A DNA stretch of 64,000 nucleotides, from the NCBI GenBank assembly GCA_036611895.1, contig GCA_036611895.1_4766.1; one strand, written 5' to 3'. The position numbers were made by a program, and so were the translations under genes. The notes beneath the pieces were generated by a model that worked only from the letters and a program-made list of their open reading frames with translations, made no database searches and was not told the origin of the DNA. This document shows, piece by piece, positions 25,831 to 33,293 of this stretch. The DNA comes from a phage. Numbering within the stretch: the stretch's first letter is position 1; every line of letters starts with the position of its first letter.

Positions 25831-26045
25831 TGGTTCCTCTTTGCAAACTCTTCGGCTTCCTTAGCCCAGAGTTGCTTACGATCTTCTTTAGCTACGATGG
25901 AAGCAAACAGGCATTTAACGAATACAACTGGTAACTTACAAATAAGTACCAGCTTAGTAATTACCCACTTGGCTCCATTGAGAATGTAACCACGTAGGTG
26001 ATAAAGCACATAACAGAGTATTACAAACGCAATGAAGTCCAACAT
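25827..26045 (-). CDS. small membrane protein (72 aa)
   Basis: MLDFIAFVILCYVLYHL hydrophobic N-terminus. Confidence 0.4.
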   Translation of the reverse strand: MLDFIAFVILCYVLYHLRGYILNGAKWVITKLVLICKLPVVFVKCLFASIVAKEDRKQLWAKEAEEFAKRNQ

Positions 26046-26047
26046 AG

Positions 26048-26347
26048 TTAGTCCTTACAGTTAATGAATTGAGAATGTAATTCACCATTACAGATATTCA
26101 TACCATCTTCATAGTATGGCTCACCTAGTTCTTCATAGTAGGCTTTGTCATCAGGATGTGGTCTAACCACCAGGTCAAATGCAGGTAATTGACTGCCACC
26201 ATCAATCACGTTGAGTAAGCTGAATATAGCTCCCTCAATACGTTCAGTAGTATCTCCTCCATCTGGAGTATTTGCCCAGTAATGTACAATTTCTTTAGCA
26301 TTAAGTAGGAATTTATTCCTTACTTCTTCCTCAGTAAGTGCTCTCAT
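26048..26347 (-). CDS. acidic early protein (99 aa)
   Basis: ORF track; Asp/Glu-rich composition (DKAYYEELGEPYYEDG). Confidence 0.45.
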   Translation of the reverse strand: MRALTEEEVRNKFLLNAKEIVHYWANTPDGGDTTERIEGAIFSLLNVIDGGSQLPAFDLVVRPHPDDKAYYEELGEPYYEDGMNICNGELHSQFINCKD

Positions 26348-26444
26348 TTAGTACATATCCTCTTCTAATATAAATCTATATCTATCTGGTTACTGTTTCA
26401 GTACCCTTCGTCTAAAGATACTCAAAAAGTAGAAATAGCTTATC

Positions 26445-26475
26445 GTCTAGTTAAAAATAAAAGACTCCCCGAAGG
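26445..26475 (-). terminator. intrinsic terminator after first early gene of promoter P-c
   Basis: gactccc-cgaa-gggagtc hairpin preceded on plus strand by aaaaataaaa. Confidence 0.45.
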
Positions 26476-26490
26476 GAGTCTATTGGTTGA

Positions 26491-26871
26491 TTAGAAAGTC
26501 AGTTTACGAGCATATTTATTCTCGTCTGCTGGGATGTCAGCAGCCTCTGCTTTCACACGACGAAGTTGAACTTGCAGGTTAATGATACCTTCTTCACCTG
26601 GTTCCAGGTTCTGAGCATATGCGATTAACTGTTCCAGCAAGTCGTTCTGTGCACAACGCATAGCACGGAAGTCAGCATTGCTGCTATTGGTAGGCAGCGG
26701 TTCCTGAGTATCCAGTGGAATACCAGTAGGCAGTGAGATGAATTTCTCATCATCAGAGCCTTCATTAGCCACATAACCAATGTTCAGCCAGAACTGAGCT
26801 TTTGGTTTGTCAGTTTTAGCAGTAGAAGCAGTATCGTTAGACTGACCGAAAGTGAATTTTTGAATAGACAT
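26491..26871 (-). CDS. early protein (126 aa; start at internal ATG with GGAGAG RBS)
   Basis: ORF track 26491..26964; annotated first ATG lies only about 19 nt from promoter hairpin centre with no RBS, internal Met (MSIQKFTF) has one. Confidence 0.5.
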
Positions 26872-26969
26872 TTTGTACTCTCCAGATTTATGTGATTTAC
26901 GGGTGAACTCGTCGGTGAGAACACCCAAACAAAAGGATAAAAGTTCAATGATTAGTGGATGCATTTACA

Positions 26970-27000
26970 TCATCCATAAGACGCGGAGCGTCTTGGTTTT
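26970..27000 (-). promoter_or_regulatory. vRNAP-type hairpin early promoter (P-c)
   Basis: tccataa-gacgc-gga-gcgtc-ttggtttt: 5-7 bp stem with GGA loop; conserved flanks shared with P-b. Confidence 0.6.
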
Positions 27001-27003
27001 GGC

Positions 27004-27273
27004 TTACCAATACATAGCTGCTGTGCCTTCTTCGGCAAAGAACTCATCTAAGCTGTTTTGATTTTCTTTACGGAACTGACGACGCAGCTTACGGATTTGT
27101 TTCTTGGTAGGTTTAGCAGGGAAACTGTAGTCAACAACCAGAGGCATTCTGGTTTCTTCACATACTTCAGAGAACCATAACTGCCACTCTGCTGCAGCAG
27201 GGATGTGTTGCTGCTTACCAAAAACCGGTTGCTTAGTACCACCAACATAGAACAGGTCAGTATTAAATTGCAT
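27004..27273 (-). CDS. early protein (89 aa)
   Basis: ORF track; RBS CAGGAG upstream; about 44 nt downstream of P-b hairpin. Confidence 0.5.
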   Translation of the reverse strand: MQFNTDLFYVGGTKQPVFGKQQHIPAAAEWQLWFSEVCEETRMPLVVDYSFPAKPTKKQIRKLRRQFRKENQNSLDEFFAEEGTAAMYW

Positions 27274-27299
27274 GAGTAAACTCCTGAATTAAAATGATA

Positions 27300-27325
27300 T
27301 CCAATAGAAGCGGAGCTTCTTGGTT
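27300..27325 (-). promoter_or_regulatory. vRNAP-type hairpin early promoter (P-b)
   Basis: tccaata-gaagc-gga-gcttc-ttggtttt; matches the N4 early promoter hairpin as I recall it (GAAGCGGAGCTTC). Confidence 0.6.
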
Positions 27326-27326
27326 T

Positions 27327-27698
27327 TTAAGGAATGTAGGACAACCAGGTTAATAGTTCTGCTTTAGCTTTCTGATACTTACTGTCTACAGTTTCATCTG
27401 AGATATCTATGTCTGATTCTCCGTAATGATGGATGTCAGACTGATATTGCTCTTGCTGGCGAATGGCTTCCTCGAATCTATTTAATGCTTCAATAGGTTC
27501 TTGTTTTTGCCATACCCATAAAGCACCTGCAAGAGGTAGATTGTCATCTTTGTACCAACGTGGTCCTATTCCAGATACACACTTTAATTTACTATCTTCA
27601 GTAAGAATGAATCTTCCTGGTGAGTGAAATTTTCCTACTAGTTCTGTTCCTACAGGAACATCTTTAGTTAATGATTTTACGCAAATGTACTTAGCCAT
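27327..27698 (-). CDS. early protein (123 aa)
   Basis: ORF track. Confidence 0.5.
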   Translation of the reverse strand: MAKYICVKSLTKDVPVGTELVGKFHSPGRFILTEDSKLKCVSGIGPRWYKDDNLPLAGALWVWQKQEPIEALNRFEEAIRQQEQYQSDIHHYGESDIDISDETVDSKYQKAKAELLTWLSYIP

Positions 27699-27785
27699 TA
27701 TCTATCTCCAAAGTAGATAGTTATCTACTTTTGACTATCTATCTAATGTTCAAAACAGGAGACTCCGAAGAGTCTCCTTGATGAC

Positions 27786-28109
27786 TTAGTCTTTAGTCAG
27801 GATGTCAATTACTTTGGAATATTCTGCGTTATAGATCCGAGCGTTCTCTGAATCCTTGCAGAATTCCTCGATACTTTTCTTACGCAGAGTCTCAGTCATA
27901 GCTGTTTCCTCTGCCAGTTTATTAACAAAGGTATGCATTTCTAATTTAGTACGAATGGCTTGTTTCTCTGCCATAGTACTAACATATGAATTAAGCATAC
28001 CTACTGCTTTAGTTGCTGTGCTGAATGTATCTGCAACAGTAGTAGCAGCTGAGTTAACAGTACCAAGTAAAGTTCCTGCGGTCATACGTACAGTAGCTTG
28101 AGTAGTCAT
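27786..28109 (-). CDS. early protein (107 aa), first gene downstream of P-a
   Basis: ORF track; about 49 nt downstream of P-a hairpin centre. Confidence 0.5.
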   Translation of the reverse strand: MTTQATVRMTAGTLLGTVNSAATTVADTFSTATKAVGMLNSYVSTMAEKQAIRTKLEMHTFVNKLAEETAMTETLRKKSIEEFCKDSENARIYNAEYSKVIDILTKD

Positions 28110-28145
28110 GATGATAGCTCCAATAGTTGATGATAGGACGACATG

Positions 28146-28168
28146 TCCATAACATGCGGAGCATGTGT
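28146..28168 (-). promoter_or_regulatory. vRNAP-type hairpin early promoter (P-a)
   Basis: tccataa-catgc-gga-gcatg: same stem/GGA-loop architecture and tccataa flank. Confidence 0.55.
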
Positions 28169-28343
28169 AACGTGTAAGGTGGGGTAGGGTAGTGGCTACA
28201 CCGTCAACATACCGGGGGGGCTAGTTGAGTGTAAGGGTGTAGCCCCAGCCACACCACTATGGCTGTACATAGCTATCACAATTTTGACATGCAAAAATAT
28301 TATAGGCACTATCTCTATAAGCAGATAACTTTGAGGTACTAAC

Positions 28344-28472
28344 ATGAAAGATGGATGGGGTAACTACAATCCTACAGACCCTGAGAACTGGCTTCACTTT
28401 ATTGCATGGGCTTGCGCTGTAGGATTCATAAGTATTGTGCTCTTATCACTGGTTCTATCTTATCTGTAAATA
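28344..28472 (+). CDS. candidate 42-aa single-pass membrane micro-protein on the opposite strand
   Basis: MKDGWGNYNPTDPENWLHFIAWACAVGFISIVLLSLVLSYL; GAGGT 6 nt upstream of ATG; TTGACA hexamer about 55 nt upstream; hairpin follows stop. Confidence 0.3.
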
Positions 28473-28473
28473 C

Positions 28474-28497
28474 TATGGGGGATAGCTATTTATCCCC
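28474..28497. terminator. hairpin (possible bidirectional terminator) between micro-ORF and paralog array
   Basis: ggggata-gctatt-tatcccc stem-loop read in sequence. Confidence 0.35.
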
Positions 28498-28667
28498 TAT
28501 TCATCATAGCGTTTAATACCTAAAACCTTGTATAGCTTACCCTTTACAAGCAATGGTCCACCTACTTCTACGAAAGCTAGGCTGTGTACTATCACTGGTT
28601 CAAGTAAGCCTTTTACTGTTATATACCACATATTAATCCTTATAAGCAGTTAAATAGGAGGAAGTGG

Positions 28668-29072
28668 TTAGTAGCTATCTGTGATACCAAAGGACATATG
28701 ATAACCACCTGTGTTTACATCCCAGGGTTGCGACAAATTAATATCCCAAGGAAGTGTCTTTCCAGATTCAAGTATTCTTATAGACCTGAAGGAGTTACCC
28801 TCTTTTATCATACTGGTTTTTACTGTTACCGGTAGGAAGATATGGAAGTAATCCCCTTCTGGTGCAAGGTAAGTATCTCCTTCATTGAGGGTAACTATCT
28901 TTGCTTTGCTGTTAGTGAGAAGTCTATGCCCCTGTGCAAAATCTGCTAACTCTCCTGGTTCCATTATTAGTGTAGAACTCCCATAGGTCATAATATGGAT
29001 GATTGCTTTTTCTGGTTCAGAGGAATAGTGCAGTAAATCTGTACCATTCATCCCTAAGAGTTTAACGTTCAT
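28668..29072 (-). CDS. paralog-array protein P6 (134 aa)
   Basis: Core STLIMEPGELADFAQGHRLLTNSKAKIVTLNEGDTY aligns with the other five paralogs. Confidence 0.55.
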   Translation of the reverse strand: MNVKLLGMNGTDLLHYSSEPEKAIIHIMTYGSSTLIMEPGELADFAQGHRLLTNSKAKIVTLNEGDTYLAPEGDYFHIFLPVTVKTSMIKEGNSFRSIRILESGKTLPWDINLSQPWDVNTGGYHMSFGITDSY

Positions 29073-29075
29073 ACT

Positions 29076-29360
29076 TCAGTACCTTTCCTTATAGATGGGG
29101 GTGCTATCATCGAATGATAGGATGTACTTGTCTGTATTAAGATGCCAAGGACTAAAGCTACCCTGCCAGGACATAGGTGTTTCTGGTTCAAGTAGATGTA
29201 CTACCGAATTCTTATTGTATAGGAAGAGTAATCCTTGTATCTCATGTAGAGACTGTTCATCTGGAACCAAGATAAGTACATCAGCATTCAGGTCAGCTAT
29301 TTCTTTATGGTGGATGTAATTTTCCCCATTAGGCTCTGGATAAATTTTACTGATAACCAT
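29076..29360 (-). CDS. paralog-array protein P5 (94 aa)
   Basis: Core DVLILVPDEQSLHEIQGLLFLYNKNSVVHLLEPETP. Confidence 0.6.
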   Translation of the reverse strand: MVISKIYPEPNGENYIHHKEIADLNADVLILVPDEQSLHEIQGLLFLYNKNSVVHLLEPETPMSWQGSFSPWHLNTDKYILSFDDSTPIYKERY

Positions 29361-29680
29361 TAGAGACTCTCGTCGCTAGATAAATATGAGGTAGAAGGGT
29401 AGAGGGTAATAAGTCTACCGGTAAGGGTAGTAACTACCGTAGGTTCAGCAGTTGATAAGATATATACTCGTGCAAACTCAGATATCTCAACTGATGTATC
29501 TATCTTAGTGAATGTAATGGGTATGCCTAACATTAGACATGTACCTATGAACTCATCTGCTTCTTCATTTGGTTCATATAGGATAGTAGTTCCATCCATC
29601 TTACCATTTAAACAATCTTGTTTAGTTACTTTGCTGCGATAGCAACTTGTACTTAGAGCAACTAATGAGTAGAAGTGCAT
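29360..29680 (-). CDS. paralog-array protein P4 (106 aa, most diverged)
   Basis: Core TTILYEPNEEADEFIGTCLMLGIPITFTKIDTSVEI. Confidence 0.5.
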   Translation of the reverse strand: MHFYSLVALSTSCYRSKVTKQDCLNGKMDGTTILYEPNEEADEFIGTCLMLGIPITFTKIDTSVEISEFARVYILSTAEPTVVTTLTGRLITLYPSTSYLSSDESL

Positions 29681-29683
29681 GGC

Positions 29684-29998
29684 TTACTTCCTTACATAGT
29701 AATAATGGTATTCCTCATTCTCATGACTACTATCCCATTGGTAATCATCAGATACCAACATGAAAGGCAGGGCGTCATATGCACTGCTATCGGCATAGAC
29801 GGAAGGAGGAATGATACATACAACCTTACGATCATTACCTGCTAAGAATAGTTGACCTCTTACTTCATGGTAGTCCTCTAGAGTAGGAACCAGGATTACA
29901 TGCTGAGGATTGCTATCTATCACTTCTTCTAAAGTGAAGTCTGTTGTGTACAAGGATTCCCCTTTAATAAAACTGGGGGCGGTCAGTATGAATTTCAT
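29684..29998 (-). CDS. paralog-array protein P3 (start at internal ATG with AAGGAAGGAAAA RBS)
   Basis: Core HVILVPTLEDYHEVRGQLFLAGNDRKVVCIIPPSVY; ORF track 29684..30073. Confidence 0.6.
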   Translation of the reverse strand: MKFILTAPSFIKGESLYTTDFTLEEVIDSNPQHVILVPTLEDYHEVRGQLFLAGNDRKVVCIIPPSVYADSSAYDALPFMLVSDDYQWDSSHENEEYHYYYVRK

Positions 29999-30359
29999 GA
30001 TGGATTTTCCTTCCTTTAGGAATAGGTCTGAAGTAAACGGAAAGTGTTTTATTAAAGAGGTTATGTTCAACAATCATTTCCCAGCCTGGTACTTTATAGA
30101 ACCTGACTCCTGGGAAGAATGTTTCGAAGTCTGCATACTCAGTAAGGTCATACACAACTGGTTCAGTAAGTATACGCGTATTGATTTGCAGATTACTTAA
30201 GAAAAATGAACCAACTATCTCGTGGGATTCTTCGCAGTCTGGTAGGAAGACTATTTGTTTGGATAGGAACTTACTAACTATCTCTGGTTCCCCTAGGTAG
30301 TATGGTTCCTGCTTACGTAGTACACCAGTAATATCAATATCAAAAGCGTAGATGCTCAT
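29964..30359 (-). CDS. paralog-array protein P2 (131 aa)
   Basis: Core QIVFLPDCEESHEIVGSFFLSNLQINTRILTEPVVY; strong RBS CAGGAGG upstream. Confidence 0.6.
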   Translation of the reverse strand: MSIYAFDIDITGVLRKQEPYYLGEPEIVSKFLSKQIVFLPDCEESHEIVGSFFLSNLQINTRILTEPVVYDLTEYADFETFFPGVRFYKVPGWEMIVEHNLFNKTLSVYFRPIPKGRKIHHEIHTDRPQFY

Positions 30360-30374
30360 ATTTGCATACCTCCT

Positions 30375-30410
30375 GAAAAAGAAATGGGGTAGAGCCTCTC
30401 GACTCTACCC
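30375..30410 (-). terminator. intrinsic terminator inside the paralog array, just upstream of P2 RBS
   Basis: ggggtagag-cctctcga-ctctacccc (9-bp stem) preceded on plus strand by aaaaagaaa. Confidence 0.5.
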
Positions 30411-30559
30411 CTTACCGTTTTCTATCACGGGTCAGTTCATCACCCTAGATACATGTGTATCGTTAGCCTACTAGGTAGGAAAGGAGCCGGGCAACCCTGA
30501 CTGTAGAAGTTATTAACTCTTTACGAGTACCGCCACTGTCTACTAGGCGGCATGACTAA

Positions 30560-30850
30560 TCACATCGTCACCGTCATCCGAACACTGTCTTTGCTTCGCC
30601 TGACGGAGACACTATGAGGTAATTTTGTGAAGAACACAAGAGCTGATGGCCCCTTTTCTAAAGAGTAAGTTTCTCTTGGTTCTAAGATTTTAATGCCCGG
30701 ACGATTCTCTAAAAGCATCATCCCAGCTAATTCATGGTAGGTATCTTCATTATGGGTAATAATGATATCACCTGAAAGAAAACCAGCCTTAGTGTGGTCT
30801 AGCTCCCTGTATTCATCTTTAGAGCCTGAGACTTTCATATAGATTCTCAA
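30560..30850 (-). CDS. paralog-array protein P1 (96 aa; TTG or internal ATG start)
   Basis: Core DIIITHNEDTYHELAGMMLLENRPGIKILEPRETY; first codon is TTG with AAGGAG upstream, in-frame ATG 4 codons later. Confidence 0.55.
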   Translation of the reverse strand: MRIYMKVSGSKDEYRELDHTKAGFLSGDIIITHNEDTYHELAGMMLLENRPGIKILEPRETYSLEKGPSALVFFTKLPHSVSVRRSKDSVRMTVTM

Positions 30851-31021
30851 AGGTTACTCCTTTTGGGAATAGGGTCATCGGAACAATACATACTATTTAG
30901 TATCATGAACTTTTTCTATATCATGACTAAAGTGTAACTGTATGGTATCGTTTCTTCAAGGGGTATCTCACCCCAAGAAAAGAATCTTCTTTAATAGACA
31001 TAACTTTGTAGCGAGATAAGT

Positions 31022-31711
31022 ATGAGTGAACTAACTAAGCAGCAGATTATTAATGCCTTACCTGCTAACTTCAAAAACAGTGTTACCCAGGAGTTGGTAG
31101 ACACGATTAACAACATAACCCAAGACCAACTGGTTGCTGAGTCCTTTCGTGAAAACTTTATCTCCTACTCTGGTGTAATGAAGGAAGGTAAGTTTAAGAC
31201 ACAGGACTACATGAATGCAGTTCAGTATGTGACTTACAAACATATGGGCTACTCAAATAAGGAAGCCTACTTTAAGACGTTCCCTAATCGACAAGCAGAA
31301 CTTGTTGCACGAGGAACCAGTGAGAAAGATATTAGTGCTTATGTATCTGCCTACCACAGGGGTAAGTTAGTTAACCTCATCATGGAACAAAGTTTGGTTC
31401 CAGTGTGGATTGTGAACCAAGACAATTATCAGAAGGCTATCAACGTTCAGGTTGAACTGATGACTACAGCAGCAAGTGAGAAGGTAAGATGTGATGCAGC
31501 TAACTCTATCCTTACTCACTTAGCTAAACCAAAAGATCAGGTAACAAATATCAATCTGGACTTAAGAGAGAACTCCGGATTAACTGACCTCAAGGCAACA
31601 CTTGCTGCATTAGCTGAACAGCAGATTAATGCAATCAATAGTGGTGTACCTACCAAAGAGGTTGCTGGTTCTAAACTAGTACGTGCAGATGAGGACATTA
31701 CAGATGTCTGA
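31022..31711 (+). CDS. putative terminase small subunit / DNA-packaging protein
   Basis: 229 aa immediately upstream of and overlapping large terminase gene; position only. Confidence 0.35.
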   Translation: MSELTKQQIINALPANFKNSVTQELVDTINNITQDQLVAESFRENFISYSGVMKEGKFKTQDYMNAVQYVTYKHMGYSNKEAYFKTFPNRQAELVARGTSEKDISAYVSAYHRGKLVNLIMEQSLVPVWIVNQDNYQKAINVQVELMTTAASEKVRCDAANSILTHLAKPKDQVTNINLDLRENSGLTDLKATLAALAEQQINAINSGVPTKEVAGSKLVRADEDITDV

Positions 31712-33293
31712 GTTAATTAAACAGGAACTGGATGAGTGGCTAGACCAGGTGGATTACTCCCACCTTAATTCTTCTAACTACGTTCCTAGTCAGTTTGCTC
31801 TTACCTTTGCCAACTTTATTAAGTTGGTTAATGGCAAAGAGGGTGAGTCCAACAAAACACCTCCAGTTCACTTGAAGATGCTGGATAAGATGATTAGTCC
31901 TAACCAGTATGTAGTTAACCTGTGCTTCCGTGGTGCAGGTAAGACTGCTGTGTTCATGGAATACTTTACTTTATTCCTGGCAGTGTTTGGTCACTTACCA
32001 AGCCTGGGTAAAGTAGAAGGAATGATTTACGTATCAGACTCAATGGATAACGGTGCTAAGTCTGCACGTAAGAACATTGAGTTTCGCTACAAGAATAGTG
32101 AGTTCCTTCAGCAATGGATACCTGAAGCTACCTTTACGGATAACCTATTAGAGTTTCGTAATGTAGAAGGGCATCGACTTGGTGTTAAGTTGTTTGGTGC
32201 TAAGACAGGTCTTCGTGGTACGAAGATATATGGTAAACGTCCAACACTTTGTGTACTGGATGACTTGATTAGTGATGGTGATGCTAACTCCAAGACTAGC
32301 ATGGAAGCTATTAAGGATACCGTCTATAAAGGTGTGAACCATGCACTTGACCCAACCCGTCGTAAAGTAATCTTCAATGGTACTCCCTTTAATAAGGAAG
32401 ATATTATCATTGAAGCTGTTGAGTCTGGTGCATGGGATGTCAACGTATGGCCTGTATGTGAGAAGTTCCCCTGTAGTAGGGAAGAATTTCAGGGTGCATG
32501 GGATGATCGTTTCTCTTACGATTACATTAAAGCCCAATATGACATGGCAGTTAAGACTGGTAAGTTGGCTGGCTTCTATCAGGAACTTATGCTCCGTATT
32601 AGCTCCGAAGATGAGAGACTGGTTCAGGATAGTGAAATAAGGTGGTATAGCAGACAACAACTGTTAAGGATGAAGTCCTGCTACAACTATTATATTACAA
32701 CCGACTTTGCTACTTCGGAGAAACAGACCAGTGACTACAGTGTCATATCAGTTTGGGCTTATAGTTCTAATGGAGATTGGTTCTGGGTTGATGGTGTGGC
32801 TAATCGTCAGCTTATGGATAAAAACTTTGATGACCTGTTCCGTCTGGTTCAAGAATACCAACCCCAAAATGTTGGAGTCGAAATCACAGGACAGCAGGGT
32901 GGATTCATCTCACTCCTTCAGAAAGAAATGATTAACCGTAATGTCTTCTTTAACTTTGCATCCTCTGAGGGTGGTAAGCCAGGCATACGTCCTGTAACCT
33001 CTAAGCTGTCACGCTTTAACCTGGTAGTTCCATGGTTCAAAGCTGGTAAGATGTACTTCCCAGAAGAGTTGAGAGATTCAACTATTATGGGTCTGTTCAT
33101 GGGTCAGATTAAACTAGCTACCATTAATGGAATCAAAGGTAAGGATGACTGTATTGATACTATCTCTATGCTGGGTTATCTCAATCCTTGGAAACCACAA
33201 GCAGGTATGACTATGGTGGATAACAAGGGCGACCCAATGTGGGATGATGAAGAAGAAGATAGTGTTAACCCATTACGTTCGTACATTGTGTGA
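31683..33293 (+). CDS. terminase large subunit
   Basis: 536 aa. Walker A CFRGAGKTAV, Walker B TLCVLDDLISD, C-terminal nuclease-like DFATSEKQTSDYSVISVWA. Confidence 0.85.
   Translation: MQMRTLQMSELIKQELDEWLDQVDYSHLNSSNYVPSQFALTFANFIKLVNGKEGESNKTPPVHLKMLDKMISPNQYVVNLCFRGAGKTAVFMEYFTLFLAVFGHLPSLGKVEGMIYVSDSMDNGAKSARKNIEFRYKNSEFLQQWIPEATFTDNLLEFRNVEGHRLGVKLFGAKTGLRGTKIYGKRPTLCVLDDLISDGDANSKTSMEAIKDTVYKGVNHALDPTRRKVIFNGTPFNKEDIIIEAVESGAWDVNVWPVCEKFPCSREEFQGAWDDRFSYDYIKAQYDMAVKTGKLAGFYQELMLRISSEDERLVQDSEIRWYSRQQLLRMKSCYNYYITTDFATSEKQTSDYSVISVWAYSSNGDWFWVDGVANRQLMDKNFDDLFRLVQEYQPQNVGVEITGQQGGFISLLQKEMINRNVFFNFASSEGGKPGIRPVTSKLSRFNLVVPWFKAGKMYFPEELRDSTIMGLFMGQIKLATINGIKGKDDCIDTISMLGYLNPWKPQAGMTMVDNKGDPMWDDEEEDSVNPLRSYIV

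Follow-up and report, generated by a model that had tools for sequence, protein, structure and literature searches.

A conserved, pseudoknotted RNA with its own terminator between gp70 and gp71 of N4-like phages

Why does a minus-strand array of small paralogous genes in a phage genome hold a gap of about 200 bp, and what occupies it? The question is raised by a window of 64,000 nucleotides (nt) of DNA (GenBank assembly GCA_036611895.1, contig GCA_036611895.1_4766.1) from a G7C-like phage (Gamaleyavirus) of the N4-like group (Schitoviridae), in which the gap is the interval between the homologues of gp70 and gp71 in N4 nomenclature. An earlier note, made from the letters alone, had described it as the only sizeable gap in the array. 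The gap does exist, but it is not peculiar to this genome, being shared by N4 (210 bp), the KP8-like Klebsiella phages (256 bp), Pseudomonas phage inbricus (250 bp) and Achromobacter phage JWDelta (253 bp). It is almost certainly filled by one conserved, pseudoknotted, non-coding minus-strand RNA of ~185 nt whose structure is real and under selection.

The element consists of eight helices, an H-type pseudoknot and an intrinsic terminator. Its positions are numbered such that RNA position N is window coordinate 30562-N, and its parts are as follows.

30376..30561, minus strand: whole RNA element, 186 nt, from inside the gp70 stop codon to the U-run of the terminator
30529..30551, minus strand: P1, RNA 11-16 / 28-33, with an 11-nt loop of consensus YAGNRGNNRGU
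30539..30543, minus strand: 5' strand of the pseudoknot, GUAGA (nt 3-7 of the P1 loop), RNA 19-23
30516..30528, minus strand: P2, RNA 34-37 / 43-46, ACUC-GUAAA-GAGU, of variable size
30509-30515, minus strand: single strand UAAUAAC (conserved RUAAC), RNA 47-53
30503..30507, minus strand: 3' strand of the pseudoknot, UCUAC, between RUAAC and a conserved CAG, RNA 55-59
within 30431..30501, minus strand: P3, RNA 61-65 / 127-131
within 30431..30501, minus strand: P4, RNA 67-73 / 117-123
30480-30488, minus strand: junction strand GGCUCCUUU, RNA 74-82
30467..30479, minus strand: P5, RNA 83-87 / 91-95, the cctac-tag-gtagg hairpin of the earlier note
30448..30461, minus strand: P6, RNA 101-105 / 110-114, GAUAC-ACAU-GUAUC
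30415..30430, minus strand: P7, RNA 132-135 / 144-147, CCGU-GAUAGAAA-ACGG
30376..30411, minus strand: P8, the intrinsic terminator, RNA 151-161 / 166-176, with its stem-loop at 30411-30386 and its U-run AUUUCUUUUU at 30385-30376

The gap is present in 56 of 59 related phage records with 90-98% identity, while the gp70 protein of the same phages is 70-91% identical. Across 13 Gamaleyavirus genomes the mean pairwise identity of 30376-30561 is 0.963, compared with 0.840 for gp70 and 0.833 for gp71. A covariance model (R1) built from ten Gamaleyavirus copies only scores the window element over its full length (231 bits, E 8e-65) and finds full-length matches on the correct strand in the syntenic gp70-gp71 gap of divergent phages. 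The E-values are 1e-39 for L013 (L-numbers are handles for loci and contigs), 9e-39 for Moo19, 1e-35 for Jgk1, 2e-32 for L015, 3e-14 for inbricus, 3e-11 for JWDelta, 1e-9 to 1e-11 for the KP8-like phages and 1e-8 for N4. The same model gives nothing at E <= 1 on 685 kb of unrelated viral contigs and no match in the N4-like phage LUZ7, whose right-end array has no such gap; the small RNAs reported for LUZ7 sit elsewhere, between orf69 and orf70 (PMC9163698).

Compensatory change indicates that the fold is maintained as RNA. In a model-guided alignment of 21 distinct sequences, 98.9% of the cells form standard pairs and 35 of the 47 pairs are changed on both sides. Double-change cells number 152, whereas shuffles give 35 +/- 4 and sliding the partners by 1-3 columns gives 3-27; the compensatory counts are inflated because this alignment was fitted to the structure, and a plain MAFFT alignment already contains 8 compensatory pairs. 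About 9% of the paired cells (~80 of 912) are G.U; read from the opposite strand, these would be A.C mismatches. Such cells and the position of the U-run identify the RNA as a minus-strand transcript. The nested structure has a free energy of -62.5 kcal/mol, compared with -62.8 kcal/mol for the minimum-free-energy fold, and a 241-nt stretch folds better than its shuffles (z = -2.96). The earlier note had called the gap a structured spacer and had counted a lack of conservation of its hairpins in related phages among the findings that would speak against it. The fold and the compensatory changes agree with the former, and the hairpins are indeed conserved and covarying. All three are present (30386-30411, 30467-30479 and, for ccgcc...ggcgg, 30530-30550), but they are the helices P8, P5 and P1 of one RNA rather than separate signals, and the cctagtag word that it saw shared between two of them is a phage-specific coincidence, with CCTACTCCGTAGG at that place in G7C and GCCAACCCAGTTGGT in phi G17.

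The helices differ in how freely they change. In P1 all cells pair, the closing pair being A-U, C-G or G.U, and a G-C pair is turned to C-G in inbricus and JWDelta. P2 is compensatory in four of its four pairs and has grown to 40-55 nt in Jgk1, L013, L015, Moo19 and KP8. P3 and P4, with four of five and five of six pairs compensatory, respectively, enclose a three-way junction carrying P5 and P6; pair 70:120 of P4 occurs as G.U, A-U and C-G within Gamaleyavirus alone, a (U)GA is conserved on the 3' side of the P3/P4 internal loop, and the junction strand holds CUCC in all N4-like members. All five pairs of P5 are compensatory and 100% of its cells are paired, around a loop of 3-5 nt depending on the phage. 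P6 has compensatory changes in three of five pairs, such as A-U to G-C within Gamaleyavirus, and P7 changes U-A to A-U in L013 and Moo19 and is missing, as a deletion in the model alignments, from inbricus and JWDelta. The terminator stem P8 is compensatory in nine of 11 pairs with 99.5% of its cells paired. Conserved single-stranded bases are few (CAG, GGU, RUAAC, CUCC and UGA). The 5' flank GAUNAG is kept among N4-like members, even where it lies off the gp70 stop codon (inbricus, JWDelta, Axy11).

The loop of the enlarged P2 reads (A)CCUCCUU(A) in L003 (Moo19), the KP8-like L027, L029 and L030, L015 and L157 (JWDelta), and is identical to the anti-Shine-Dalgarno 3' end of 16S ribosomal RNA (rRNA). 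These P2-loop and CUCC(UU) strands could pair with a Shine-Dalgarno (SD) sequence or mimic the rRNA tail.

The pseudoknot was left out of the covariance model, and its columns nevertheless pair in 95% of the cells, with three of five pairs compensatory (alignment A3). In 17 distinct metagenomic combinations of loop and partner, 43 of the 51 cells that the search pattern left free are paired, compared with 21.5 +/- 3.4 for shuffled partners, none of 10000 of which reaches that number. The two strands change together over a wide range of sequences: GUGG / CCAC in L013, GGAGU / ACUUC in N4, GGAGA / UCUUC in KP8, GCGGA / UCCGC in inbricus, GCCGA / UCGGC in L170, GCCGGA / UCCGGC in L172, GGUGC / GCAUC in L177, GCGGU / ACCGC in L184 and GCGGG / CCCGC in L193. 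Between L202 and L205, two Mu-like prophages of Undibacterium, a G-C pair of the pseudoknot is replaced by A-U. The few pattern hits that lack this pairing are chance matches within coding regions. A pairing of the P1 loop with the CUCC junction strand has a persistent mismatch in its middle and was replaced by the pseudoknot with the segment after RUAAC.

The family extends well beyond the N4-like phages. A metagenome scan with a pattern of the most conserved letters (P1 with its loop, RUAAC and CAG) gave 38 loci, 15 of them Gamaleyavirus-type, one N4-like, one KP8-like and many GC-rich with the same layout; a looser DNA pattern gave more than 120 chance matches, which were reused as a negative control. 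A P3 helix preceded by GA, which is outside the pattern, is found in 13 of 22 family candidates, compared with 8 of 80 and 213 of 2000 controls. By inspection of open reading frame (ORF) translations, the carriers include the Mu-like Undibacterium prophages L202 and L205 and a related metagenomic Mu-like contig, L177. The element lies within replication modules in contigs L168, L173, L193 and L208 and directly upstream of ORFs resembling terminase small subunit, large subunit and portal in L166. In L168 it heads an operon in a divergent intergenic region, which is the position of a 5' leader and not of a 3' untranslated region (UTR). In ~12 independent lineages the genes that come after the element share its strand, and none is convergent; every downstream gene that can be read has this orientation, in most cases beyond a hairpin or terminator. 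The downstream genes themselves vary (by ORF inspection a gp71 paralog, a VRR-NUC nuclease, an HU-like protein, a small terminase, small membrane proteins and transfer RNAs (tRNAs)). Two further copies, both recognized by inspection only and unscored by R1, are a divergent one in Achromobacter phage Axy11 and a reduced core (P1, pseudoknot, P3 and P4) in Burkholderia phage HN02. Contig L173 also carries, at 1314-1394 on the plus strand and ~1.5 kb upstream of the motif, an 81-nt match to a transfer-messenger RNA (tmRNA) model (71 bits).

The RNA is a new family, matching no Rfam 15 family and nothing in the literature searched. There is no gathering-score Rfam match in the whole window, the only match at E <= 10 is a chance one of a microRNA model to the terminator (E 7.3), and in 15 member loci the motif has no Rfam match. 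With ARAGORN, no tRNA or tmRNA gene is detected in the window, and 5,426 complete E. coli genomes hold no similar sequence. Several readings by motif were rejected. The UGAUGA...CUGA strands were considered as a kink-turn or C/D box, but the bulged strand lacks the required G.A pairs (by eye) and there is no Rfam match; a hammerhead reading of UGAUGA was likewise dropped by eye, with no Rfam match. GGA loops of the kind bound by CsrA occur in N4 and KP8 and not in Gamaleyavirus.

The statement in the earlier note that no ORF exceeds 12 codons is not exact. Open stretches on the sense strand reach 30 codons, and an ATG ORF of 40 codons runs on the plus strand at 30352-30474, antisense to the RNA and the start of gp71, and is open in phi G17 too. 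Neither the sense-strand stretches nor the antisense ORF shows coding-type conservation, and the latter probably stays open only because the RNA is conserved.

The setting of the RNA in its transcription unit bears on what it might do, and the following features are needed here.

31022-33293, plus strand: homologues of N4 gp69 and gp68 (terminase), after annotated relatives
30931..30959, minus strand: sigma-70-type promoter TTGAAG-17 bp-TACACT, recognized by reading the sequences and missing from the list of the automatic scan
30560..30838, minus strand: gp70 homologue, 92 aa, phrog_7213, the upstream neighbour of the RNA
30374-30369 and 30359-30357, minus strand: gp71 SD sequence AGGAGG and ATG, read from the sequence
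29964-30359, minus strand: gp71 homologue, the downstream neighbour of the RNA

The gp70 stop codon overlaps RNA positions 1-2, and at the other end the terminator has an 11-bp stem (ggggtagag/ctctacccc with additional U.G and C-G pairs) containing seven G-C pairs, a 4-nt loop and a hairpin dG of -20.7 kcal/mol. It heads a list of 12 terminator-like sites scanned in 26000-33000 (shuffles give 4.1), and a terminator is annotated at the corresponding place in the records of PhAPEC5/7, JWDelta and N4-like phages. The GC-rich stem-loop is followed immediately by a U-tract, and its stem is kept by compensatory change. One base (30375) separates the U-run from the SD sequence, and nine bases lie between the SD sequence and the ATG; the minus-strand intrinsic terminator abutting the ribosome-binding site (RBS) of gp71, as the earlier note had it, is thus present in all its sequence features. 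With the SD sequence starting one base past the U-run, no space is left for a promoter ahead of gp71; the other N4-like copies and the Mu-like ones have none either. The linker between P7 and the terminator is 3 nt in the window and, read by eye, ~4-6 nt in inbricus, JWDelta and the Mu-like copies. In the N4-like and Mu-like members the terminator is within the conserved unit and the RBS of the next gene follows 1-30 nt on, the Mu-like copies having the same order of RNA, a few nt, a strong terminator and the start of the next gene 15-30 nt later.

No promoter is recognized next to the RNA itself. One within the 3' end of gp70 was considered, but the last 100 nt hold no sigma-70 match, and their raised conservation is due to a conserved C-terminal protein motif, FFTK(L/I)P.S.S(I/V).R. 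Upstream of gp70, by contrast with this, the form TTGNNN-17-TA(G/C)ACT stands at the corresponding place in all clades (TTGCAG-17-TAGACT in N4, TTGCGC-17-TAGACT in inbricus, TTGATA-17-TAGACT in JWDelta, and TAGACT in KP8 and L013) and is kept in phages of E. coli, Klebsiella, Pseudomonas and Achromobacter. The gp70 promoter is the likely source of the transcript that contains the RNA, which would then be made together with gp70 by the host polymerase. The region around this promoter (30851-30974, minus strand) is itself strikingly conserved from E. coli phages to Pseudomonas and Achromobacter phages: a hairpin GGGGTGAGATACCCC abuts the -35 element, CCTATTSCCAAAGGA surrounds the RBS, and a leader hairpin 3' of the promoter covaries (CTTAC/GTAAG, CATAC/GTATG, GATAC/GTAT). 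The motif GTTACACTTTAGTC from the region upstream of gp70 occurs once in the window.

The reading that best fits this arrangement, and to which we give somewhat less than an even chance at its lower bound and about an even chance at most, is that the structured domain acts in cis on the transcribing RNA polymerase, setting or regulating read-through of the terminator. A host-type promoter upstream of gp70 would place gp70 and the RNA on one transcript. The nascent RNA would fold into P1 with its pseudoknot, P2, the P3/P4 three-way junction with P5 and P6, P7 and lastly the terminator. Because there is no space for a promoter behind the terminator, the gp70 promoter would serve gp71 and the next four paralogs only through a polymerase that reads through, and it is this dependence on read-through of a hairpin or terminator belonging to the conserved unit that argues for a role in elongation or termination. 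The structured domain would set or regulate the fraction that reads through, in the manner of either of two known systems, both of which work without a classical antiterminator overlapping the terminator. That such RNAs form a new and widespread class of cis-acting phage elements on the host RNA polymerase is possible but doubtful; they would be either constitutive, as processive antiterminators like put but with a different, pseudoknotted fold, or responsive to a ligand or protein in the way of a riboswitch, and would control the passage from a short early transcript into the operons behind it in N4-like, Mu-like and other phages.

The first of these systems is put of phage HK022, a nascent RNA that acts in cis, binding and modifying RNA polymerase to make it resistant to terminators; it is ~70 nt long, its two stem-loops forming a V and stem I containing a short triplex, and works through the beta' zinc-binding domain to suppress termination and pausing (PMC9378689). 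Like put, the present element is a structured phage RNA behind a sigma-70-type promoter and, as it appears, for the host polymerase; it comes after a small first gene, as putR does ~270 nt past the PR start, stands ahead of terminators and a long operon, and has no dedicated downstream gene family. Its promoter (30959-30931) and terminator (30411-30376) lie in one predicted transcription unit, with the RNA between them. Unlike put, it has ~150 nt plus a terminator, an H-type pseudoknot and a three-way junction, with no sequence similarity, and by its predicted architecture it is not a member of the put family. The second system is the 'tug-of-war', in which stable structures just upstream of an intrinsic terminator suppress it, with ZTP riboswitches as natural cases (bioRxiv 10.64898/2026.06.17.733018). 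The likeness lies in a pseudoknotted domain that abuts the terminator, here over the 3-nt linker, without overlapping it in sequence; the differences are a linker of 27-30 nt in N4 and KP8-like phages, the lack of ZTP aptamer homology in Rfam and the lack of a known ligand. The arrangement also recalls lambda PR' - 6S RNA - tR', with a host-type promoter, a short structured transcript, a strong intrinsic terminator and genes reached only by read-through, and in L166 the position directly upstream of the terminase- and portal-like ORFs resembles the lambda late operon. In lambda, however, Q is loaded at the promoter, while no Q-like factor or qut site was identified here and gp70 lies between promoter and RNA in the N4-like phages.

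Several observations weigh against a role in termination. In N4 and the KP8-like phages that 27-30-nt linker between the last helix and the terminator is conserved, and a mechanism by steric effects alone does not suit these members. A clear U-tract is missing behind the terminal hairpin of several GC-rich members, and the reduced core of HN02 is followed by three tRNA genes with no terminator, an arrangement that fits a gene for a stable RNA too. No register-consistent antiterminator pairing was found: a helix of the 5' flank GAUUAG with the 5' arm of the terminator, 8 bp in Jgk1, was rejected for want of a conserved register. In most of nine representatives, truncated folds pair the G-run of the terminator with C-runs that belong to P1 or to the 5' flank, in a register that varies and with no covariation. 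A covarying, aptamer-like fold, as expected of a riboswitch, is present, but the downstream genes differ between phage groups and share no metabolic or transport function, and there is therefore no functional link of the riboswitch type. In LUZ7, which is without the element, the genes at the right end are covered by middle transcripts of the phage polymerase (PMC9163698), and by analogy the downstream paralogs might be expressed independently of the gp70 promoter here.

The strongest alternative, possible though on balance unlikely, is a stable structured RNA that acts in trans: it would be cut from the gp70 transcript or started internally, have its 3' end set and protected by the terminator hairpin, and bind a conserved host or phage factor. 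A terminator that covaries as an integral part of the unit suits such an RNA, and so does the GAUNAG flank, which is conserved off the gp70 stop codon and could mark a processing site; the scarcity of conserved single-stranded bases is typical of a binder of macromolecules or ligands and not of a base-pairing small RNA (sRNA). The site also seems to be used for stable RNAs, as the tRNA genes behind the HN02 core and the tRNA arrays of Pollock and UTK0001 indicate. Yet no promoter is recognized beside the element, no partner or seed sequence is evident, the copy in L168 has the position of a 5' leader, and promoterless same-strand genes always follow close behind, which a free-standing RNA gene would not need. 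Enterobacterial sRNAs derived from 3' UTRs share the terminator of the messenger RNA (mRNA) upstream. The present RNA resembles them in sharing the gp70 mRNA terminator and in starting at the gp70 stop codon, and differs in having eight helices, a pseudoknot and no seed, and in its conservation across Escherichia, Pseudomonas, Achromobacter and Undibacterium. GOLLD and ROOL are orphan structured RNAs of diverse phages, sometimes found near tRNA genes. The RNA is like them in being conserved and structured in diverse phages and in lying beside tRNA genes in HN02, but it is several-fold smaller and the Rfam search did not match it. In Salmonella phage UTK0001 (L161) and Escherichia phage Pollock (L162), both Humphriesvirinae, the tRNA arrays replace the gp70-RNA module, and in Schitoviridae the locus beside the terminase genes seems to be favoured as a site for RNA genes.

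It is improbable that the element is a self-cleaving ribozyme or a platform for RNase processing that parts the gp70 message from the downstream array; a processing site was among the suggestions of the earlier note. The compact pseudoknotted core with few invariant junction nucleotides would suit one, as would the scatter over unrelated phages in non-conserved gene contexts, a habit of known small ribozymes, and one carrier also holds a Hammerhead_II ribozyme (L177, 12273-12355, minus strand, 49.6 bits, ~400 nt downstream of the motif in this Mu-like metagenomic contig). Against this stand the lack of any Rfam ribozyme match even at E <= 10, the lack of a cleavage site that could be named, and the constant association with a hairpin or terminator, which is not a ribozyme feature; a new class of self-cleaving ribozyme is the less likely outcome.

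A plain intrinsic terminator, with hairpins that are incidental or stabilize the 3' UTR and with passive attenuation of the downstream paralogs, is quite improbable, for although the terminator is strong by sequence criteria and annotated in several records, a passive 3' UTR would neither keep eight helices and a pseudoknot by compensation across subfamilies and Mu-like prophages nor exceed the neighbouring genes in conservation. The earlier note had suggested attenuation or differential expression. Of these, unequal expression of gp70 and the downstream copies is a reasonable expectation from the predicted terminator, whereas attenuation of the passive kind is disfavoured by the conserved structure.

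A function at the level of DNA, as a hairpin promoter for the N4 virion RNA polymerase, a replication origin or a packaging signal, is very improbable. P5 has the shape of an N4 early promoter here, with a 5-bp stem, a 3-nt loop and a central purine on the template strand, and the gap adjoins the terminase genes ~2.1-2.5 kb from the genome end. This shape is found in only some Gamaleyaviruses, however, and both the length and the sequence of the loop vary (4-5 nt in Jgk1, L013 and Moo19); P5 lacks the GC-GGA-GC consensus (PMC6950046), the G.U cells would be mismatched on the other strand, the pseudoknot and the U-run terminator are features of RNA, and members of the family are found in Mu-like prophages as well as in replication modules remote from any genome end. 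Hairpins that do have the GGA-loop form of N4 virion-RNA-polymerase promoters were found by scanning at two places in short gaps between early-region genes, and are similar to the promoters predicted in phage KP8, AAGACGCTCCGCGTCTTATGGA (PMC6950046).

27306-27320, plus strand (template for minus-strand genes): early-promoter-like hairpin AGAAGC-GGA-GCTTCT
26977-26995, plus strand (template for minus-strand genes): early-promoter-like hairpin GACGC-GGA-GCGTC

Lastly, a decayed seventh paralog, as the earlier note had allowed, has next to no probability: the position inside the array and the size of roughly a short gene would suit it, but a translated search (tblastn) with the six paralogs gave nothing beyond artefacts overlapping the flanks (16.5 bits at best), all six frames of the gap contain stops, the gap is conserved above the intact genes, and the same gap is found in N4, which has only gp70-72.

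The neighbourhood of the RNA is otherwise that of its relatives. A 4-kb stretch around the gap matches 68 phage records, the closest with ~90% identity, and by comparison with annotated relatives the minus-strand array consists of homologues of N4 gp70 and gp71 and of the extra G7C copies gp71.1, gp71.2 and so on, directed toward the right end of the genome. The six small paralog proteins (from 30560-30838 down to 28668) match no Pfam family, and their PHROGs have no known function; the similarity among them is weak (pairwise E 1e-6 to 1e-2), and gp71 and the next paralog overlap by ~35 nt (29964-29998). The termini of phage IME11 have been mapped experimentally (PMC3896407), and the ~400 bp bracketed by their homologues in the window (~27851-28252) are probably the direct terminal repeat and thus the physical genome ends, and the window probably runs across the junction of a genome assembled as a circle. 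A protein 100% identical to the gp70 of the window is filed in NCBI as a hypothetical protein of Escherichia coli on a contig of 72,516 bp, which in all likelihood is a phage genome that was submitted as part of a bacterial assembly.

Phage transcription has a classical model in N4, whose right end holds gp70-72 and the 210-bp gap, and both N4 and G7C propagate on derivatives of E. coli K-12. The hosts of the N4-like carriers are Escherichia, Klebsiella, Shigella, Pseudomonas and Achromobacter, and the RNA would be a new family for Rfam. HK022 put is, to our knowledge, the only well-studied phage case in which termination is controlled by RNA alone; if the proposed action of the element in cis on terminator read-through is true, it would be a candidate for a second, structurally unrelated case. 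If it is instead a stable RNA acting in trans, it would still be a conserved phage RNA with a presumably universal partner.

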